From a virus: DNA of 11,593 bases. The position numbers and the translations under genes were made by a program. This document shows, piece by piece, positions 129 through 11,526 of this stretch; the first letter of the stretch is position 1; each line of letters opens with the position of its first letter. Below the pieces are notes generated by a model that worked only from the letters and a program-made list of their open reading frames with translations, was not told where the DNA came from and ran no database searches. The stretch lies in the UHGV virus genome UHGV-1887975, one strand, 5' to 3'.

Positions 129-141
129 CAATGACCCTTGA
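129..141. repeat. attL core, CAATGACCCTTGA
   Basis: It is identical to 11514-11526. It contains the tonB-derived ATG at 131-133, which here opens only a 4-codon mini-ORF (ATG ACC CTT GAA TAA, 131-145). Confidence 0.75.
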
Positions 142-924: not shown

Positions 925-1112
925 ACAGGTTAGTACCTATGCAATTTAACGGTATTTTTCCAAGTATCTATGCAATCCTACACAGATTCTATACAGTATC
1001 GACATAGTTTCCTTTTGGTATAACTTATTGAAATATATAAAGAATCTGTGAAGCCCCTTTTCAGGGTAAACTGTATCGTGTTAGTCGTCCCTCTCTCGAC
1101 TCCTAGAAAAGT

Positions 1113-1142
1113 GCTATATACAGGGCTATATAATGCTATATA
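1113..1142. repeat. Three tandem GCTATATA units (1113-1120, 1125-1132, 1135-1142), including a perfect TATAAT at 1129-1134
   Basis: Read directly, with a period of 10-12 bp. This could be a promoter cluster or an easily melted AT-rich element. Confidence 0.5.
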
Positions 1143-2591
1143 GATAGTTGGTCACATGGTGTAACTATCAAACTACTTAACAGTTTCCTACGTGAAAGTT
1201 AGAAAGTGATAGTTATAGTTACCTTGTCAAATCTTCGTAGTCCATTCTTAAAAAATCACTTACAGACACCTTAATATCTATACAGATTTCATGTAGAACA
1301 CGATTAGTGCGTAGAAGAGTCATTATGTTAAAAACGAACTGTATACGTATCAGTACTGATTTATAAGGGTTTTGTGTATTTGAAGATAAGAGGCTATACA
1401 GCACCTTGAGAGCATGTCTTCTAAGTCATTGATACATAAGGTCACAGAAGTTTGTGTCTGTTACAGAGAAAACTGGATAGGACTTCACAGAACTACAAAA
1501 TGTTACAGCTATTGATAGGTGAAATCTTCTTGATAGATGCCTTGAAGTGTGGTGAAGGTTTCTTGAGGTGGAGCTAAACAGATGCTATGAAGAAAGTCAA
1601 TAGTTGGTTATAGATATTTTAACTGCTTTTGCAAAGGGGGTGCTGTATCGTGAATCTGGGGTACTTAACAGCCATCAATCATGAGGTAGATTCTACCGAA
1701 TCAACTGTGTAGATATTTTTTAAGATTATCGGTGAAGGGGGAATGCAGAGGGGGGTACTACGATTTTTATAAAAATTTTCAGAAGCCAAATAACTACTGT
1801 GTATATTTTGCACAATCCTGCCAAACCTCATAGAAAGCTCTGTAGCGAGTTTTAACCCCATTTTTAGGGGTAACCTGTAGGGATGTACCACCCACCTTAA
1901 AATAAAGGGGTAAAATCGCTTAGAATGCGTTACAGAGCGTCTGAGAAGCTATATTCACAGATTTTACTAAAGTCTCAGACTTCTAAGTAGTCTTTTTAAC
2001 GGGAGGGTTCTTTCTCATGTATCACCCTCTCTTCCCGCTAAGTAAGCTACACAGACCTAGAGAACATGCCTTCACAGCATCTATATCAGGTCAGATTTAG
2101 AGGGTTTTGATAGAATTTTCAAAGGTACTTGACAGATAACTATGAAGTTGTTAGGAAGAATTGTTTAACGGGAGGAAAGATACGATATAACCCGAAGGGA
2201 AAGTATCATCTTAACAGTGATTGTAAGAGATACCTGAAAAGCTCCTCTTAACAGAACTACCAAGAAGAGAGGGAACGATAAGACCAGAGGTAGTGACCTG
2301 TTAAATAGTTCGTTTCAAAGCTCTTAAGAGTCTGTTAAGTAAGGGCTATGTGAACAATCTTACCATTTTGTCAATGCTCTTGTCTTTGACCTAAATCAAT
2401 AAAATGTATCGTTTGATATGGTTTTAAGCAAGATGGCTAAAAATCTTTTTAGAGGGGCGCTTCGCTTGTGTCACTATGTTCTTTCTCTCCCTGTCTAAGA
2501 GGGGGGTTACAGAGGTCTTTCAAGTCTCAATAGACAAACCGAGGAACGCAGGAAACCGAGGGAAGAAAAACTATTGTGATTACCCTGAACA

Positions 2592-2625
2592 AGGTCTGTA
2601 AAGGTCGTTTAAGAGGTCGGTTAAG
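2592..2625. repeat. Three tandem iteron-like units: AGGTCTGTAA, AGGTCGTTTAAG, AGGTCGGTTAAG
   Basis: Read directly. The units are contiguous with a period of 10-12 bp. Confidence 0.6.
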
Positions 2626-2749
2626 AAAGGAGCTTCCCTCTCTGGGGTTGTCGCTCTTCTCTCGCTTGGTGGATTGATTAGGGGGTATGTTATACAAGCC
2701 CAACTAAGAAGACCTCTGAAGCTTACCTGTGAAGAAGCTGAACAGCTAT

Positions 2750-2802
2750 TATATTGGGTGATTACAACTCATTGAAAAATAAGCATTTTTAGAAATCACT
2801 GT
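2750..2802. repeat. 53-bp direct repeat, copy 1
   Basis: 49 of 53 positions match 2844-2896, at an offset of 94 bp. Confidence 0.85.
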
Positions 2803-2843
2803 TAAGGTTGCAGAGTTGTCTGTGAGGAGACTTGTCTGCTCTC

Positions 2844-2896
2844 TATATTGGGTGGTTACAACTTATTGAAAAATAAGAACTTTTAGAAATCACTGT
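2844..2896. repeat. 53-bp direct repeat, copy 2
   Basis: 49 of 53 positions match 2750-2802. Confidence 0.85.
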
Positions 2897-2998
2897 CAGA
2901 GAGGTGAATACTTGATAGATACAGCTTTCCGGTTCTGTCAAGTCATTTTTTAATAGATAGCATAAAATGCTAAAGATACCCCTATACCATCACGTACA

Positions 2999-3026
2999 GG
3001 GGGTTTTGAAGGGGGTTTAACGGGGG
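2999..3026 (+). repeat. Three G5 tracts at 11-12-nt spacing: AGGGGGTTTTGA, AGGGGGTTTAAC, GGGGG
   Basis: G5 runs at 2999-3003, 3011-3015 and 3022-3026. The third run overlaps the last codons of the minus-strand small ORF. Confidence 0.6.
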
Positions 3027-3193
3027 TCTGTGTGGTCATTATCCTTAAGGTCAAGCGTCCATGTACGACCGAACAGTTTAAAGACAACAAGCACTCTGAC
3101 GAGGACGTAGCGAAGTAGCAGGCCTGCAATAAGTCCAATACCTCCACCAGCCCATACATCAGGTGACCCCAATTCTGGAGGGAGATTTACCAT
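3017..3193 (-). CDS. Small single-pass membrane protein, 58 aa (MVNLPPELGSPDVWAGGGIGLIAGLLLRYVLVRVLVVFKLFGRTWTLDLKDNDHTDPR)
   Basis: The ATG at 3193 is preceded by AAGGA with a 6-nt spacer on the minus strand. The protein has a clear hydrophobic helix, and the segment is locally GC-richer than its surroundings. The track's longer version (to 3235) begins at a TTG with no SD. Confidence 0.4.
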   Translation of the reverse strand: MVNLPPELGSPDVWAGGGIGLIAGLLLRYVLVRVLVVFKLFGRTWTLDLKDNDHTDPR

Positions 3194-3410
3194 TAAATTT
3201 CCTTGTAAGACGCTCTCAATCGCATTCTGACACAAAAAAGTACCTGACCTTATAGTTGACCTGAAGAGGCCATTTAACTCGTTACAGAGCGATTGAAGAG
3301 GTCTGTGTGCAATGCAATAACCATGTGACCACTCTCATAGCCACGCCTCATATTTTACTCTCCCCATAGAACCATTATACCACAGATGTTAATGAAATGT
3401 TAAAAAGTGC

Positions 3411-3439
3411 TTGACATTAGTCTTTGAAAATGCTAGTAT
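3411..3439 (+). promoter_or_regulatory. Strong sigma70 promoter for the rightward operon: TTGACA (3411-3416), 17-nt spacer, extended -10 TGcTAGTAT (3431-3439)
   Basis: Hexamers and spacing are read directly. It is followed by two TTAACA boxes (3450-3455, 3461-3466) one helical turn apart, in an operator position. Confidence 0.65.
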
Positions 3440-3487
3440 TGTATATAAGTTAACAGAGGATTAACAATTATAAGGACTAGCTTATGA

Positions 3488-4849: not shown

Positions 4850-5173
4850 ATGAATAATTTCCCACTACAGATTTTTATTGATACCGACACCGCCATGATG
4901 ATTCAGGCTTTCACTGATGTAGGTGTTAGCATTGACTTTGATAAGTTGTTAGAGTTAATGGCTGATNATNCNGANANCATCTNTGACTTTATTCACTCGG
5001 TGGAGTTTAACGAGCCTCGAATGATGTTACCAATTACAGACAGTAATATGAAAAGATTGGTTATTGAGCAAACGAACAAATACAGTATTTCCCCAGAGCA
5101 ATTTTTGAAAGGTGCTGTGACAATCCTGTACAGCGATAATATTTTGGTTACGGATTCCGTGAGGGTTCACTAA
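4850..5173 (+). CDS. Hypothetical protein, 107 aa, containing 6 ambiguous bases
   Basis: The ORF is in the frame of the track's 4739..5173 entry. The ATG at 4850 (MNNFPLQ...) is preferred because 4739-4849 holds two hairpins and encodes an atypical Cys/Trp/His-rich peptide. The start remains uncertain. Confidence 0.6.
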   Translation: MNNFPLQIFIDTDTAMMIQAFTDVGVSIDFDKLLELMADXXXXIXDFIHSVEFNEPRMMLPITDSNMKRLVIEQTNKYSISPEQFLKGAVTILYSDNILVTDSVRVH

Positions 5174-5667: not shown

Positions 5668-6378
5668 ATGACAAACGATTTATATATTAACGGCAGAAAG
5701 ATTGATAGCTTCGGGGACTGGTCACCACAGGGTGAACATCCGCTACATACTATTCAGCGTAAAGAACACGATGAAAGAATTAAGCTTGAGCAAGAGTTAA
5801 AGATGTCACCAAAGGTAATTTCCTTTGTGTCTCCTGAGCCTCAAGAAATGCCTGATGTATGCAAAACTGAAGCACTATTTAATCTTGAGCGTGAATATTA
5901 CCCACTGCTAAAAGCACAGCGTATTAAACTAGATGACGCTTACAGCAAAGTTACCCTGATGCAATCAGCTATTGAGCCATCAGAATTTGAGATTCAGGAT
6001 GAATTGTCACAGAAACCATTTGTCTATTACAAATATGAAGACAATGATGGTTTTGGTACTTTTCCTGAGAATATCCCAGACGTGATTAATAATCTTCCTG
6101 ATGGATATCGAATTGTGAAGATGGTTAAAGCTTCAAGAGGTGCTGGTCAGTTTATTTTCATGACCGATAGGAGCGATGAAGAACTCTGTGAAATTGCTAA
6201 ACAGAACATCTTAGCATCACGTAACAAGCAACTTGAAAATGTTAAGTTGTATCTCTCAAGAGAGCTTCAGGCTATGAAAGAGCTTGTTAGTGAATATGAA
6301 TCACAGAAGAAGATTGCTATGCAGGCTGATATTGAGCAGTTAGTGAAGATTTCTCAGAAATATGCAAAGGCACTTTAA
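5668..6378 (+). CDS. Hypothetical protein, 236 aa, with a coiled-coil-like C-terminus
   Basis: The ATG at 5668 is preceded by AGAGGA with a 7-nt spacer. The track's 5623 start is a GTG inside the GTGTGCT motif. Confidence 0.75.
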   Translation: MTNDLYINGRKIDSFGDWSPQGEHPLHTIQRKEHDERIKLEQELKMSPKVISFVSPEPQEMPDVCKTEALFNLEREYYPLLKAQRIKLDDAYSKVTLMQSAIEPSEFEIQDELSQKPFVYYKYEDNDGFGTFPENIPDVINNLPDGYRIVKMVKASRGAGQFIFMTDRSDEELCEIAKQNILASRNKQLENVKLYLSRELQAMKELVSEYESQKKIAMQADIEQLVKISQKYAKAL

Positions 6379-6606: not shown

Positions 6607-6631
6607 AAAGATTGGTTGGGTAAAAATCAAC

Positions 6632-6672
6632 GGGAGAGATTATCGAGTGACATCGGTAGCTCTCCCTTTTTT
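6632..6672 (+). terminator. Rho-independent terminator: GGGAGAG / CTCTCCC stem followed by TTTTTT
   Basis: Stem arms at 6632-6638 and 6660-6666, and the T-run at 6667-6672, are read directly. Confidence 0.7.
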
Positions 6673-6700
6673 GTATATGAGATAGTCTTCTATCGAATCC

Positions 6701-6802
6701 TGTGTGCTACGTGATGATTCGGATAAGAATTATCCTCATGAAATCTGTAAAACTAATACCCACACTGAAAAATAGAATTTACGTACAACACGCTTAAAGA
6801 GG
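6701..6802 (+). promoter_or_regulatory. Conserved GTGTGCT-box intergenic element, copy A, upstream of the tape-measure gene
   Basis: It shares GTGTGCTACGTGA (6702-6714) and the block TACCCACACTGAAAAATAGAATTTACGTACAACACGCTTAAAGAGG (6757-6802) with copy B. The two ends can pair (6701-6714 with 6779-6792, with 2 internal mismatches). Confidence 0.55.
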
Positions 6803-6812
6803 TGAAACATGA

Positions 6813-8936
6813 ATGAGCAAATTCACAGTTGATAGTTTTATCGTTGAGCTAGGCTTCAATGAAAACGTTATTAAGGGACTGCAAAGAGTTGAAAAGGCAG
6901 CTTTGCAGTCAGCACAAAGAATTGAAAAGAACCTAAATAAAGGTTTCAGGATTAATACAAAGCAGCTTGATAGTAATTTAACGGCTTCTTTAGGGCAGCT
7001 TGAAAGGAAGTTTAATAAGGCCTTTGACAAGATTGAACAGAGAGCAAGAAATACTAAAGCTTTCCAGTTTACCACCAGATTTAATGACACTGTTAATCCT
7101 CCAAAACAACCAAGACAGCCACGAATTAGCGGAAACAGAGCAATCACAGCAGCTTACTCAGCGAATATGAGCAAGCTAAAAGGCCTTAACCCAATTGTCG
7201 AGAAATACATTAAGAGTCAGTTTTACGGGCTATCTGCTAAAGCCGGGTCAATGGATTCTTCAAAATTCAATGAGAAGTTAGCTCAGTTAAACGCTTCAGT
7301 CAGAGAAGCAATTGCTAAAGCCAGAGGTCATACATCCACCAGCATTAATGGTGACAGAGCAGCTAATAGTCTTGATAACCTGTCTTCAGCAGCAGTTAAA
7401 ACAGCAGGTGCATTTATCTCAATGCAGGCTGTATTAGCCAGTTATCAGAAGATTATGGAAATTGGTTTACAGCGTGCAAGTGCTGAACGTTCAATTGATT
7501 TCGTATTTGATAAAGATGCAGGTCAGGTAAAAGAGTTCACAAAGTCATTAGCTCAAACAACGGGTTTAGATATCGCTGAACTGCAATCACAGTTTGCTGG
7601 TTTTGGTGCTTCAGCTAAAGAGTCTATGGGTATTCAAGGTTCTGAAGAACTTTTTAAAAATATGATTGGCTATGCTCGTCTGATGGGGAGAAGTGAAGAA
7701 GAGATTAAGCGAGCACTGACAGCATTATCACAGATGGCTGGTAAGGGTCAGATTATGGCTGAAGAGCTTAAGGGGCAACTGGCTGAAGCTGTTCCTGGTA
7801 TGGTTCAGGTATTCGCTAAAGCAACCGGAAAGACTGAACAGGAATTATTTGATGCCATGAAGAAGGGGGCTTTAAAATCTGCCGATACTCTTCAGAAGGT
7901 CACTCAGGAACTGAATAAACAAATCACCGCTAAAGGTGGCTGGAAAGCCATTTCAGAAAGTACTCAGGCACAACTAGGGAACTTGAAAAACTCTTGGAAT
8001 ACCACGCTTGATAGTATCTTCAGAGGTTCTGAAAATGGTCTGCAAGATTTTACACGAAGCCTAACAACGCTTTTAAACGCTCTTGGTGGAAGTGGTAAAA
8101 GTCTTGGTGAATCTCTTGGTAGTCTCATGACTTCTATGTCACATGGTGTCGATAGTCTGACCGATATTAGTTACAAGGTGCGAGCGTTCTTTGATGAGGT
8201 GACATTAGCTTACCGTTCACTAAATGACACTCAGAGGAAAATTGTTGATGGTTTATCTGATGGGTTAATTGATGGTTTGAAGATGCTTGCTGTGGCTGTT
8301 ACTGCTCAAAAGGCTGCAAATGTAGCTGGAGGCTTGTTAAACCTTGCAAATGCTGTTACTTCATTCGGTGATGCTGTTAATAAAGCTAAAGCTGGCAAGG
8401 CTGGTTCTTCAGGTGGTGCGCTAAGTAAAGTCGGTAGAGTTGTCCTTTATGCTGAGTTGGTAAACTTTGCTCTTGATAATTTAAACCCTGAAGCAGCTAA
8501 GAATCCGAACTTACACCAATCAGGTATTGGTACAGAAACAAACTTCAATCCTGAATACAAAGGCGATTCTAAACCAAACCAAATTAATGAGGGGTGGGCT
8601 AAGATTGGTAGTTCTATCGCTGACTGGTTTAATGGTGCAGCTAATAAAATTGCTAACTTACAAGAACCGATGAATAACTTCGTAAATAACACACAATCAA
8701 CTCCACCAGCTATCGACACGGTGAATATCAATGCTCAATTAGCTATGGCTGTATCAGAGTTAGGAAGAAAGGTTGATGCTTTAACAGTAGAAGCTCGGAA
8801 GCCTTTATCAGTTAATATCAAAGGTGAAGCAATTGTTAGGCCGGATGAGCCATCTTTCTTTAATTTCAATCAATCAGCTAATGACCAGTTCACGCAGGAT
8901 ATGCTCTTAAGTTCAAGCTATCCAGAGGAAGAATGA
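6813..8936 (+). CDS. Tail tape measure-like protein, 707 aa
   Basis: The central segment ALSQMAGKGQIMAEELKGQLAEAVPGMVQVFAKATGKTEQELFDAMKKGALKSAD matches the conserved tape-measure core motif known from lambda H/TP901-type TMPs. The protein is long, helical and Ala/Gly/Ser-rich. GAGGTG SD with an 8-nt spacer. Confidence 0.85.
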   Translation: MSKFTVDSFIVELGFNENVIKGLQRVEKAALQSAQRIEKNLNKGFRINTKQLDSNLTASLGQLERKFNKAFDKIEQRARNTKAFQFTTRFNDTVNPPKQPRQPRISGNRAITAAYSANMSKLKGLNPIVEKYIKSQFYGLSAKAGSMDSSKFNEKLAQLNASVREAIAKARGHTSTSINGDRAANSLDNLSSAAVKTAGAFISMQAVLASYQKIMEIGLQRASAERSIDFVFDKDAGQVKEFTKSLAQTTGLDIAELQSQFAGFGASAKESMGIQGSEELFKNMIGYARLMGRSEEEIKRALTALSQMAGKGQIMAEELKGQLAEAVPGMVQVFAKATGKTEQELFDAMKKGALKSADTLQKVTQELNKQITAKGGWKAISESTQAQLGNLKNSWNTTLDSIFRGSENGLQDFTRSLTTLLNALGGSGKSLGESLGSLMTSMSHGVDSLTDISYKVRAFFDEVTLAYRSLNDTQRKIVDGLSDGLIDGLKMLAVAVTAQKAANVAGGLLNLANAVTSFGDAVNKAKAGKAGSSGGALSKVGRVVLYAELVNFALDNLNPEAAKNPNLHQSGIGTETNFNPEYKGDSKPNQINEGWAKIGSSIADWFNGAANKIANLQEPMNNFVNNTQSTPPAIDTVNINAQLAMAVSELGRKVDALTVEARKPLSVNIKGEAIVRPDEPSFFNFNQSANDQFTQDMLLSSSYPEEE

Positions 8937-8950
8937 TTTCTTATATATAT

Positions 8951-9026
8951 CCGTGTGCTACGTGAAATCTTCTGAACGGATATACCCACTAAAAATTATT
9001 TTTTACGTAGCTCACGCTTAACAGAG
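8951..9026 (+). promoter_or_regulatory. Conserved GTGTGCT-box intergenic element, copy B, upstream of the 9102 gene
   Basis: GTGTGCTACGTGA at 8953-8965 and TACCCACTAAAAATTATTTTTTACGTAGCTCACGCTTAACAGAG at 8983-9026. The ends form a 16-bp stem with one mismatch (8952-8967 with 9001-9016). Confidence 0.55.
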
Positions 9027-9101: not shown

Positions 9102-9872
9102 ATGATTTACACTAATCAGCTTCGTTACAGTGGCAAAGATGGTGTTTACTTCCATCTACAAGGCCAACCAGATAATTTCTTGTCACTATCAGCAACTGAG
9201 AACATGGAATATGACAGCCCTATGATGGTGACCACTCAAAATATGCAATCAGGGCAGACTGTAACAGATAATGTAATGCGTTCACCAAGAACTATTTCAA
9301 TCAGTGGTGTGGTTGTGGTTGGTGAATCCGGTAGTATCCTTATCTCAAGAGATAATAAGCTGGTGGAAAACTTCATAGACACTCTTGAAAACTGGCGTGA
9401 CCAGAAGCAAATTATCTCAGTTGTCTGTAAAGATGGTATTAAGATTGACGACTCAATTATTACAAGCTTTAAAGCCTCTAAAGATGTTGGTATTTCAAAC
9501 GGCCTAAGAATCCAGCTAACTTTTCAGGAAATCAACTTTAAAGCTATCGTAGGGCAAACTGATATTTCGACTGCTACTGGCAAGACCGCTACCACGAATG
9601 ATGGTGGTGCTACTTCTAAGAAGAATACAGGGAATACTACGACAAGTCTTGGAAGCCCTATGCTGACCTGTAAAGAGCTTTTTAGCTATTCGGCAAGTAA
9701 GTTATCAGATGAAGCGCTAAAAGCCCGTGTAACGTGCTCTAAGAGCGTTAGCGTTAAAAATGGTGAGAGCACCTTCACAGCCTCAGCTAATGAGCAAGCT
9801 TCAAAGGTGCTTAAGTCGGGTAATGCTTTACGGAAGTACTCTGTGAATCCGAATAAGAAGGGCACTTATTGA
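9102..9872 (+). CDS. Hypothetical tail-associated protein, 256 aa, named by position downstream of the TMP; the C-terminal half is Thr/Ser/Gly-rich
   Basis: The ATG at 9102 is preceded by AAGGAG with a 6-nt spacer. The track's 9081 start is a TTG. The function is inferred only from synteny with the TMP. Confidence 0.7.
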
Positions 9873-9904: not shown

Positions 9905-11425
9905 TTACAGTTGATAAGCGTCAATATCCAGTAGCTCTTTATCAGCAATTTCAAAGATTGGTGACCCATCATTTAGCGGTAACGGGTTTGTAGGTATGGT
10001 TATTTCAGTGTCGTTCTGTAGCGTTACAGTTACCGAATCCTTACCCAATGTCAGCCCCTTTAGATGCTTGGACAAAATCAACTGACACTCGACACGACCC
10101 GCTTTAGTTGTCAGGTCAATATCTTTAAGCTGGGGTAGTTCCTTATCAGTGAGTGAAGCCTTACGCCTCATGTTATCAATCGTGGTCTGTAGCTCTGTGC
10201 GCTTCTGGTTCAGTTCCTTAAGCTGAATTTTTAGTTCATCAATATCATCCATCTCAAGAAGTAGGGCGGTAGCTTTCTTGATTCTGGTTGTGACAATTTC
10301 AACCTCATGCTGTAGAGATGCAATCTTCCCCTCTGCTTCTCCATCATTCCCCACGTCAATCATCCCCAGAAAATTATCAATCATCCACTTATCAAACGGT
10401 TTACGCTTCAACGGAGGAACATCACAGCGACCATCAAGATGGTTATTGCACCGATAAACGCCCTGATACTTATTCTTAGTCCCTGTAGGGTGAACACTAG
10501 CCCCGCACTGACACCTAAACAGACCTTTGAAGATGTTAATCGTTAATGGATTATCACTTGCAGGTGTACGGCCTATACGGTTCTTACCAAGAATCTCTTG
10601 AGCTTTATTGAACGTTGAAGCATCTATAGCGGCTTCGTAGTAGTTCGGTATAGCGGGGCGGTCATTACGTTGTGATGCTGGTAACGTGCCTATCGTTGTC
10701 TCTGACCTTAAGATGGTGCGTACAGAGTGAACACTAAACCCGTTAGCATCTTTACGGCGACTAAACGACTTTATACCGTTGCTTTGAAGGTGACGGGCGA
10801 TGTTATGCAGACTTTCACCACTTAGCAGCAGCTTGAAAATCAGTCTTACAGTCTCAGCGTGTTCATTGAGTTTAAAAGTATCGGGGTCAATCCATCCGGG
10901 AACCATCTTTGTTAAACGTTGTTCACCAGCAAGGGCAAGTTTTGCACGTTGCTCCCATTTCTGAGAAACACGGAAAGACTTCTGCTTAGATTCCTGATGC
11001 GCTATGTAGGCTTTGACACGCTGGATGATTGAGATTCCTAAATCATCGGCTAAAGCATCCTTTGTGTAGATAAGACCATCTTGTAGCGTGTGAATCTCTA
11101 ACCCGTTGCCTAAGATGCGATTCATCAAGGCTTCTGTTTCAAGGTGTTCTAAGCGGCCTATACGGTCGATACTCTCAACAAGCAAAATCGTACCTTCTGG
11201 AAACTCCCCAGACTCAATACGGGCTAACATGTCACCAAACTGACCAGTAAGATGCTTACCTTTGTAACCGGATAGGCCTTCATCACTGAAAGACGCTACT
11301 ACTTGAGCATCGCTATTCTTCTTCAGCCACTGCTTGAACAGGTCGTTTTGTCGTCTGGTTGAATCTGCACCTTCAGCGCCTTGTATAGCTGAACTGTACC
11401 GAAGGTATGTAATTACGCTCCTCAT
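9905..11425 (-). CDS. Large serine recombinase (integrase), 506 aa
   Basis: N-terminal catalytic motif YLRYSSAIQ with downstream VESIDRIGR. Cys-rich zinc-ribbon segment CQCGASVHPTGTKNKYQGVYRCNNHLDGRC. C-terminal coiled coil. The gene lies adjacent to attR. Confidence 0.9.
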   Translation of the reverse strand: MRSVITYLRYSSAIQGAEGADSTRRQNDLFKQWLKKNSDAQVVASFSDEGLSGYKGKHLTGQFGDMLARIESGEFPEGTILLVESIDRIGRLEHLETEALMNRILGNGLEIHTLQDGLIYTKDALADDLGISIIQRVKAYIAHQESKQKSFRVSQKWEQRAKLALAGEQRLTKMVPGWIDPDTFKLNEHAETVRLIFKLLLSGESLHNIARHLQSNGIKSFSRRKDANGFSVHSVRTILRSETTIGTLPASQRNDRPAIPNYYEAAIDASTFNKAQEILGKNRIGRTPASDNPLTINIFKGLFRCQCGASVHPTGTKNKYQGVYRCNNHLDGRCDVPPLKRKPFDKWMIDNFLGMIDVGNDGEAEGKIASLQHEVEIVTTRIKKATALLLEMDDIDELKIQLKELNQKRTELQTTIDNMRRKASLTDKELPQLKDIDLTTKAGRVECQLILSKHLKGLTLGKDSVTVTLQNDTEITIPTNPLPLNDGSPIFEIADKELLDIDAYQL

Positions 11426-11513: not shown

Positions 11514-11526
11514 CAATGACCCTTGA
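11514..11526. repeat. attR core, CAATGACCCTTGA
   Basis: It is identical to 129-141 and contains the functional tonB ATG (11516-11518). Confidence 0.75.

Follow-up and report, generated by a model that had tools for sequence, protein, structure and literature searches.

Likeness of a conserved non-coding region of an Escherichia coli island to the genome ends of Felix O1-type phages

In the satellite P4, which carries the cos site of P2, and in the cos- and pac-type phage-inducible chromosomal islands (PICIs) and Staphylococcus aureus pathogenicity islands (SaPIs), the helper packaging enzyme can act on the satellite DNA because a cis site has been copied from the helper. [quoted passage not shown] The phage-inducible chromosomal minimalist islands (PICMI) of Vibrionaceae were described as small satellites of virulent phages without capsid-remodelling genes, the DNA being packaged as a concatemer (PMC10803314). 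The present analysis concerns the virus genome UHGV-1887975, a stretch of 11,593 nucleotides (here called the window), which was found to contain an 11.4-kb island between ends (1-141 and from 11516) made of E. coli core DNA from the yciI-tonB interval. The clusters of short repeats at 1995-3026 of this island had been taken in an initial annotation for helically phased iterons of a possible replication origin.

The clusters lie within a region of 2.56 kb (925..3487) that was without annotated coding sequence (CDS) in RefSeq and was found to contain one small unannotated minus-strand gene. The comparisons given below supported the reading of 925..3487 as a cis region of the island family that is conserved, non-coding and rich in repeats. 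The clusters are tentatively read, at slightly under even confidence, as a mixed set of elements in one unit, on an island that looks like a satellite of Ounavirinae (Felix O1-like) phages, where they would be cis sites for helper proteins, probably in packaging. It is with distinct reserve that the wider proposal is made, namely that the island may represent an undescribed and widespread E. coli satellite family of Felix O1-like phages, with a composite hijack site, in which the copied terminal-repeat junction would serve packaging while helper-type repeat arrays and box-hairpins would draw in helper proteins for replication. Tape-measure and baseplate-hub proteins would be supplied by the island itself. 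In a literature search of incomplete coverage, no satellite of Felix O1-like phages was found described.

The non-coding region and the ends of Felix O1-type phage genomes

By BLAST, the non-coding stretch was found to match Ounavirinae only (39 records), in a ~1.7-kb unannotated and repeat-filled region of these phages. This region contains the direct terminal repeat (DTR), which the annotation of Pr103Blw places at 1-581. Phages of this type were reported to package via direct terminal repeats of 581-591 bp (PMC8303462). ZX4221 was found to contain an exact 591-bp repeat at both ends, which starts with GCCCCCTTAAC and ends with GGGCTACC, and the left end of the DTR was common to four further phage records. 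The right boundary of the DTR, between GGGCTACC and AAGCAGATATACATC, was fixed by two independent records (Pr103Blw and ZX4221). In the records of H12 and BPS15Q2 the repeat was not found at both ends. For KMM2, the start of the record was considered as a physical phage end and was rejected, the end of the record overlapping its start (an assembly artefact), and the small repeat_region features of phage ekra were found not to be terminal repeats.

The strongest phage similarity was found at this genome-end (packaging) junction. Block A (1580..1797, plus strand), which lies outside the span 1995-3026, was found to be the homologue of the DTR right junction, with the equivalent of the boundary at ~1667/1668 between GGGGTACTT and AACAG. 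A profile of the phage terminal region matched 1580-1722 in nhmmer (E=6e-15), spanning the right boundary, followed by a weaker co-linear phage match that runs on to 1797 and takes in a perfect 14-bp all-AT palindrome, ATTTTTATAAAAAT (1763..1776); in the phages this palindrome follows the DTR boundary on its right side, ~75 nt away. The loci used for comparison were 7 from E. coli, 2 from E. albertii, 4 from IMG/VR and 63 from metagenomes. Among 46 distinct islands, a single copy was found of the block A element TTGCAAAGGGG in 42, of the junction motif in 44 and of TTTTATAAAAA (the AT palindrome) in 45. Block A of this island was found to contain a 29-nt hairpin mini-insert, ATCATGAGGTAGATTCTACCGAATCAACT (1678..1706, plus strand), which was present in 10 of the 46 islands, absent from the phages Pr103Blw, H12 and ZX4221, and identical in some islands and, at the corresponding position, in some phages. 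Hairpin inserts of ~28-55 nt with the core AGTTGATTCGGT(T)AG ... CTCAT were also observed at differing places among islands (L007, L008, L010, L011), sometimes nested, and they look like a miniature mobile element common to phage and island.

Block B (2248..2339, plus strand) was found to be the homologue of the DTR interior (GGGAACGATAAGA ... TAGTGACC; nhmmer E=9e-8), with 82% identity over 55 nt in BLAST, and in the reciprocal search a profile of the island core matched ~226-358 of the phage DTR (E ~1e-6). Parts of the non-coding region were shown by sequence similarity to be related to the phages' own terminal non-coding region. The hexamer TGTTA[AG] was found 26 times in the phage region against 1.8 expected. 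In the island the excess was moderate: it occurred 8 and 6 times on the two strands against ~2.5 expected on each, and T[TA]ACAG occurred 11 times against 2.3 expected.

The tail genes of the island, a tape-measure gene (6813-8936, plus strand; PF20155) and a Dit-like baseplate gene (9102-9872, plus strand; PF21821), were found to match phrog_4036 (E=8e-81) and phrog_3721 (E=6e-126). The match of the Dit-like protein to phrog_3721 was end to end, and the protein was ~71% identical to the product of the gene that follows the tape-measure gene in ~250 Felix O1-like phages. The initial annotation had supposed that a helper might have to be recruited, and the likeness to the Felix O1-like terminal non-coding region together with the phage-type tail genes points the same way.

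The core at ~2160-3460 was compared across 52 distinct islands in bins of 20 nt. In nearly all bins 73-100% of the islands were aligned, for the most part with 80-97% identity, the exception being 2665-2705, with 28-53% aligned; over most islands the core stood at ~85-95% identity. The identity of the adjoining 184-aa protein fell to 58-70% in the same set. The stretch 1245-2160 was variable and was present in 30-50% of the islands. The most invariant non-coding block (2349..2470, plus strand) was recognised by long runs of invariant columns in 8 islands; it was aligned in 83-96% of the islands at 85-98% identity and was found to end in a box-like TTTTTAGAGGGGCGCTTCGC (2446-2465) followed by a GCG-CTT-CGC mini-hairpin. 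A lack of conservation of the clusters in related elements had been named beforehand as evidence against them, and most of the clusters were found to be conserved.

Exact dispersed repeats of 8-10 nt in 925-3487 were compared with 300 dinucleotide shuffles and were found to be 2-4 times commoner than in these, the observed count being reached in none of the 300. The excess persisted when one copy of the 94-nt-spaced duplication was removed. Local repeats (within 40 nt) numbered 14 against 2.1 expected, equally in the non-coding region and in a tape-measure coding control. The GC content of the non-coding region in 400-nt windows was 34-45% against ~37-41% in the flanking coding sequence, and at ~2000-3000 it was 39-43%, not below the coding parts; the easily melted AT tracts said to adjoin the clusters were not borne out, the region being no richer in AT than the rest of the island. 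An Rfam scan of the whole window gave nothing credible. Ten G5 runs were observed on the plus strand of 925-3487 and none on the minus strand, and the GC skew was strongly positive over 1200-3000, with its maximum of 0.28 in the window 1401-1800. The C5 runs of the minus strand were considered as a mimic of the left terminus of the phage, and this idea was dropped because the DTR left end (GCCCCCTTAACA) found no counterpart above chance.

Repeats, boxes and the small gene

The motif coordinates of the initial annotation were found to be exact in every case. These positions and the excess of dispersed repeats stand, whereas a single class of helically phased iterons was not recovered. A spacing of 10-12 nt was found in three clusters, whereas the copies of AAACCGAGG lie 17 nt apart and the tandem unit that is conserved has 13 nt and variable copies, and helical phasing was upheld to that extent only.

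The AGGTC tandem (2592..2630, plus strand), an array of GTAAAG, GTTAAG and GGTCGGTTAAGAA units, was found to contain AGGTCTGTAAAG, AGGTCGTTTAAG and AGGTCGGTTAAG starting at 2592, 2602 and 2614, respectively. The unit conserved among the islands was GGTCGGTTAAGAA, and GGTTAAGAA was present in 1-4 copies in the 35 of 46 islands that carry it. This tandem had been separated from the ACAG family; it was found to belong to that family, because the CTGTAAAG and GTTAAG that it holds (CTGT[TA]A / GTTAAG) are the same motif on the other strand. It aligned weakly (E=0.044) with the phage DTR tandem GGGGCTATAAAGGGCTTTTAAGAGGGCTGTTTAAAAG (GGGGCTATAAAG-GGCTTTTAAGA-GGGCTGTTTAAAAG) and resembled the phage ATTAAGAAGGTTGTTAAGAAGGA, and also ATTAAGAAGG-TTGTTAAGAAGG near the first gene of the phage. 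The 13-mer AAGGTCTGTAAAG was found to be exact in both the island tandem and phage SP116, and the motif GTTAAGAAGG was common to island and phages. Outside the span, GCTATATA was found three times (at 1113, 1125 and 1135; 1113..1142, plus strand), with a weak match (E=0.027) to the phage CTATATA triple ACTATATAGTACTATATAACTATATA; its third copy was not conserved among the islands. The likeness of the GTTAAGAAGG-type tandem and of the CTATATA triple to the phage repeats is only suggestive.

The two copies of AAACCGAGG (2536..2561, plus strand; starts at 2536 and 2553), which had been listed as an iteron class, were found only in module type I of three, types II and III containing other purine-rich versions with two AAAC(N)GAG-like elements, and other modules replaced the pair in about half of the islands. 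Of the two copies of GGTCTGTGTG (3025 and 3300), one is inside the small gene, and one is in the interval that separates this gene from its predicted promoter. Because ~5 repeated 10-mer pairs are expected by chance in 925-3487, they were indistinguishable from chance. The 14-mers were located at 932 and 963. The largest repeat of the span 1995-3026, missing from the initial annotation, was a 53-nt unit in two copies 94 nt apart (2750-2802 and 2844-2896, plus strand) with 92% identity, of which one copy was found in 22 of 46 islands and two copies in 23. The sequence AATCACTGTTAAG (2794-2806) was observed to be a perfect inverted repeat of CTTAACAGTGATT (2210-2222).

The box TTTAACGGGAGG was found at 1995 and 2164, followed at both places by a hairpin. 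At box 1 (1995..2029, plus strand), with the stem GAGGGT (2003-2008) / ACCCTC (2024-2029), the box was invariant in all eight aligned islands, and its hairpin contained one compensatory change (GAGGGT/ACCCTC against GAGGGG/CCCCTC). The box 1 module itself was variable and was BLAST-aligned in about one third of the 52 islands. Box 2 (2164..2207, plus strand) forms the left edge of the conserved core, with a two-tier hairpin at 2179-2207, and a box was present in 44 of 46 islands. Hairpin stems were counted in each sequence separately, since the MAFFT alignment was out of structural register, and the box 2 hairpin was found to be kept in 51 of 51 variants via compensatory changes. The outer stems occurred in four versions (GATAC/GTATC, AGAACC/GGTTCT, GTAAC/GTTAC and AATAC/GTATT), and the inner stems were CCC-GAA-GGG or ACC-GAA-GGT.

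Upstream of box 2, a promoter-like TTGACA-N17-TAGGAA was found (2129..2157, plus strand). It was present in only one of three upstream variants, TAGGAAG or TGTGAAG being placed at a fixed distance from the box. Felix O1-like phages were found to repeat an early cassette upstream of the small genes that flank their terminal region, with TTGCAA/TTGACA, N17, TAAATT, N7 and the AACGGGGAGG hairpin (AACGGGG), followed by a ribosome-binding site and ATG. The island box TTTAACGGGAGG resembled the box of this cassette, ATCAACGGGGAGG with its hairpin, both island boxes having the same form. No open reading frame (ORF) was found after box 1 or box 2.

The small gene (3017..3193, minus strand) encodes 58 aa with a predicted single hydrophobic helix. 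At least 46 of 51 distinct variants kept its ORF intact; the substitutions were conservative and the changes of length (58-62 aa) stayed in frame. The gene was annotated in three relatives. The sequence TTTAACGGGGG (3016-3026) was found to be the reverse complement of its last codons, D-P-R-stop, and the third TTTAACGGG copy, previously counted as a repeat, is this stop-codon region. The G5 tracts start at 2999, 3011 and 3022. The first was found to be one arm of a terminator-like hairpin that belongs to the small gene, CCCCTGTAC...GTATAGGGG with a T-rich tail after it (2979..3002, minus strand; terminator scan). This hairpin was inverted in place in 2 variants (CCCCTATACCATCTCGTACAGGGG) with the stem kept and contained a loop insertion in 3 sequences. 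The second tract reads CTCCC in most relatives, and therefore the phased G5 pattern is not a conserved feature. For all three G5 tracts and for TTTAACGGGGG the explanation is an ordinary one, namely that they are part of the small gene's 3' end and terminator. A divergent promoter pair (3374..3439; 11/12 and 10/12 in the promoter scan) was aligned in 100% of the islands at 91-97% identity. Its minus-strand member (3403..3374), TTAACA-18-TATAAT with an upstream TG, points towards the small gene, and its plus-strand member (3411-3439), TTGACA-17-TAGTAT, towards the operon that begins with the 184-aa protein.

Packaging site, replication origin or control region

In the mechanism tentatively favoured here, infection by the helper would be followed by excision of the island through its serine recombinase, and the mimic sites would be bound by helper DNA-binding proteins that act on the phage's own terminal region. 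At block A, the helper packaging enzyme would recognise the satellite DNA and cut at or near 1667/1668, while the tandem arrays and box-hairpins of 1995-3026 would help this nucleoprotein complex to assemble, as its accessory sites for binding or bending, and might also prime or start replication. If this is true, island DNA in virions would end at ~1667/1668, and transfer would be lost without block A or the tandem arrays. Features of a satellite were found in part. The island contained an integrase (the large serine recombinase) with defined attachment sites (a duplicated 11-bp core), and as a candidate cis signal for helper packaging it contained the single-copy homologue of the DTR right junction, the left-end counterpart being absent from the window and from 77 island loci. 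No capsid, terminase or polymerase genes were found among the island proteins (Pfam, PHROG), the tape-measure and Dit-like genes being the only recognisable structural genes. The island is thus without a full set of virion and replication genes and would presumably depend on a helper.

Several findings weigh against this mechanism. The helper relationship, including excision, replication and packaging, is drawn entirely from sequence similarity. The island has 11.4 kb, the helper capsid is built for ~88 kb, and no small terminase or recognisable size-redirection gene was found in the island. The DTR left end found nothing above chance in the window or in the 77 loci. Compared with the phage, the island is much poorer in the hexamer, most copies of which have the opposite orientation, and the order of the blocks differs, the phage containing B followed by A and the island A followed by B. 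The tandem and the GCTATATA triple resemble phage repeats no more than suggestively, at E 0.03-0.04 in a 3.6-kb target, and in the literature searched no published account was found of what Felix O1-like terminal repeats do. In phage T7, the junction sequences on one side of the terminal repeat can be enough for packaging to begin, which by analogy would fit the absence of a left-end copy. Concatemers, as reported for the PICMI, might answer the mismatch in size. Metagenome contigs of 11-12 kb were considered as packaged monomers and were set aside, breaks at the island borders fitting strain mixtures equally well.

The main rival is a replication origin as in the Vibrio PLE, which is judged somewhat unlikely. 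The repeats at 2160-2700 would then bind an unrecognised island initiator, or the box-hairpins would be transcription-primed starts, with recruitment of the helper replisome, and block A could be the packaging site. This is favoured by the precedent of the PLE, with its origin inside a 2.7-kb repeat-bearing non-coding region (PMC7145576), by the copy number of the tandem repeat, which varies among the islands, by promoter-like boxes without a downstream ORF, and by the strongly conserved core, which adjoins an orphan-protein operon with one weak helix-turn-helix match. However, the island proteins gave no match (Pfam, PHROG, NCBIfam) to RepA_N or to any other domain of an initiator, helicase or primase, in agreement with the initial annotation, and the cognate initiator (Rep) gene expected of such an origin was therefore not found. 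The 184-aa and 236-aa proteins, put forward there as unrecognised initiators, gave AlphaFold models (all helical, pLDDT 69, and long coiled helices with a small beta domain, pLDDT 67, respectively) that had no significant structural relatives and matched no Rep fold, the confidence of the models being moderate, such that an orphan initiator could escape. Iteron origins contain at least three direct repeats of one 17-22-bp unit at regular spacing; the units found here are short and few (9-13 nt, 2-3 copies, spacings of 10-17 nt), and the AAACCGAGG pair is exchanged for other modules as described. DnaA boxes were absent from 925-3487, and no AT-rich unwinding element adjoined the clusters, the AT palindrome lying 230-800 nt from them.

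It is unlikely that the region is one of transcriptional or RNA control with no direct role in replication or packaging, in which the boxes and hairpins would be promoters, 5' leaders or small RNAs and the repeats operators, bound by small DNA-binding proteins of the island, of a switch between silence and induction. The likeness of the boxes to the promoter-proximal box of the phage early cassettes, the TTGACA-N17-TAGGAA upstream of box 2, the weak helix-turn-helix match of the 128-aa protein, the presence of a strong divergent promoter pair and of a small gene with its terminator in the same region, and the compensatory changes of the hairpins, which are expected of structured RNA, would all agree with such a role. 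Against it, no Rfam family was matched, the -35 and -10 elements of box 2 were not conserved across the three upstream variants, and the hairpin energies were weak (-3 to -11 kcal/mol, z ~-2), DNA hairpins fitting equally well; the single-copy homologue of the DTR junction would also be left unexplained. That the repeats arose by chance, or that the region is captured phage DNA in decay and functionless today, is very improbable. Several single items, such as the two copies of GGTCTGTGTG, were at chance level, the local repeat density equalled that of the coding control, and 1245-2160 was variable among the islands; but the core was conserved as much as the neighbouring protein or more, the phage-like elements were single-copy in 42-45 of 46 islands, and the hairpins were preserved through compensatory changes.

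The island and its comparison with known satellites

The insertion point of the island was found to be the start of tonB. The left attachment core of 11 bp, ATGACCCTTGA (131..141), is followed by island DNA from ~142, and the same 11-mer was found again at 11516-11526, where it forms nucleotides 1-11 of the tonB CDS, such that the core is duplicated at both junctions. The large serine recombinase (9905..11425, minus strand) contained Resolvase, Recombinase and Zn_ribbon_recom domains. The tonB promoter and the first 11 nt were observed to remain at the left junction, the island cutting tonB off from its native promoter, and the intact tonB CDS at the right junction has island DNA upstream with two GCTACAAT motifs (11489 and 11505), which may be replacement -10 elements; the iron (Fur) control of tonB may be altered.

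The left part of the island was found to contain a 221-aa orphan protein (259-924), and the non-coding region is followed by an operon of orphan proteins of 184, 93, 128, 107, 236 and 67 aa, among which the 128-aa protein had the weak helix-turn-helix match. The 107-aa gene contained ambiguous bases (N) at 4967-4983, which concern the sequence quality of the source record. The 236-aa protein (5668-6378) is called 'transposase' in many NCBI records and had no Pfam, NCBIfam or PHROG match; the name looks unfounded, and from its model a structural or scaffold-like role is possible. Past the 67-aa gene, an intrinsic-terminator-like ATCAACGGGAGAG ... CTCTCCCTTTTTT was observed at 6629-6672, which opens with a ATCAACGGGAG box as in the phage early cassettes. 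A repeated intergenic element (6697-6801 and 8949-9026) was observed upstream of the tape-measure and Dit-like genes, with the layout ATCC(T)GTGTGCTACGTGA ... CCCAC(A)CT.AAAA.TA ... TTTACGTA ... CACGCTTAA. It may be a shared regulated promoter and found no match in BLAST against phages.

Of 5426 complete E. coli genomes, 551 were found to contain relatives of the non-coding region, the median number of matching places per genome being 3, and the relatives examined had identical gene order, at tonB or at another chromosomal site. UTAK-18 is among the strains with the island, and a relative is present in the probiotic strain A0 34/86. A scan of the genome collection with the invariant anchor gave matches in Escherichia albertii only, and records of the island were found in Escherichia, Shigella and Salmonella. 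Some related islands (L009-L012, hits H64-H98) were observed to contain cargo in or beside the non-coding region, namely a Dam-like methylase, an AP2/HNH protein and a small serine recombinase (~190 aa, in either orientation). The gene at the left junction also varied, with 221 aa here, 277 aa in L008 and none in L006. These variable sites may be a cargo or defence hotspot; PADLOC gave no matches for eight island proteins, the 221-aa protein included.

If the satellite proposal is true, Felix O1-type phages have a parasite in about one tenth of complete E. coli genomes. Such phages, which are virulent, serve widely in typing and have been proposed for therapy and biocontrol; the island would affect their efficacy and could bring about gene transfer by transduction. 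The island would also offer an E. coli counterpart to the Vibrio PLE for the study of satellites of phages that never lysogenise, and its phage-like blocks bear on the role of the repeat-filled terminal region of the Felix O1-like phages themselves.

The iteron origins of plasmids and lambdoid phages are like this region in their short direct repeats at ~10-13-nt spacing in non-coding DNA, whereas the units found here are shorter and fewer, the clusters are of heterogeneous origin, and an adjacent initiator gene, an AT-rich unwinding element and DnaA boxes are absent. The PICMI, compared by description, differ in that this island contains a tape-measure gene, a Dit-like gene and a large non-coding region. 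With P4, the PICIs and the SaPIs the island shares, in block A, a candidate copied packaging site, but the helper here packages by DTR, and only the right boundary and an interior piece were copied, the left end not. The PLE is alike in architecture and not by sequence homology, and no protein homology to it was found by family searches. The two have in common that they are integrative islands of small size, each with a large serine recombinase, ~2.6-2.7 kb of non-coding DNA with several repeat families and a tie to a virulent myovirus. The PLE has a RepA_N initiator that binds iterons, whereas this island has no recognisable initiator, is found in Escherichia, Shigella and Salmonella records instead of Vibrio, and contains helper-homologous tail genes and a copy of the helper terminal-repeat junction; we know of no such tail genes or junction copy in the PLE. 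In kind, the strategy of the island is a variant of known ones, in which a copied helper packaging signal is joined to a PLE-like architecture.

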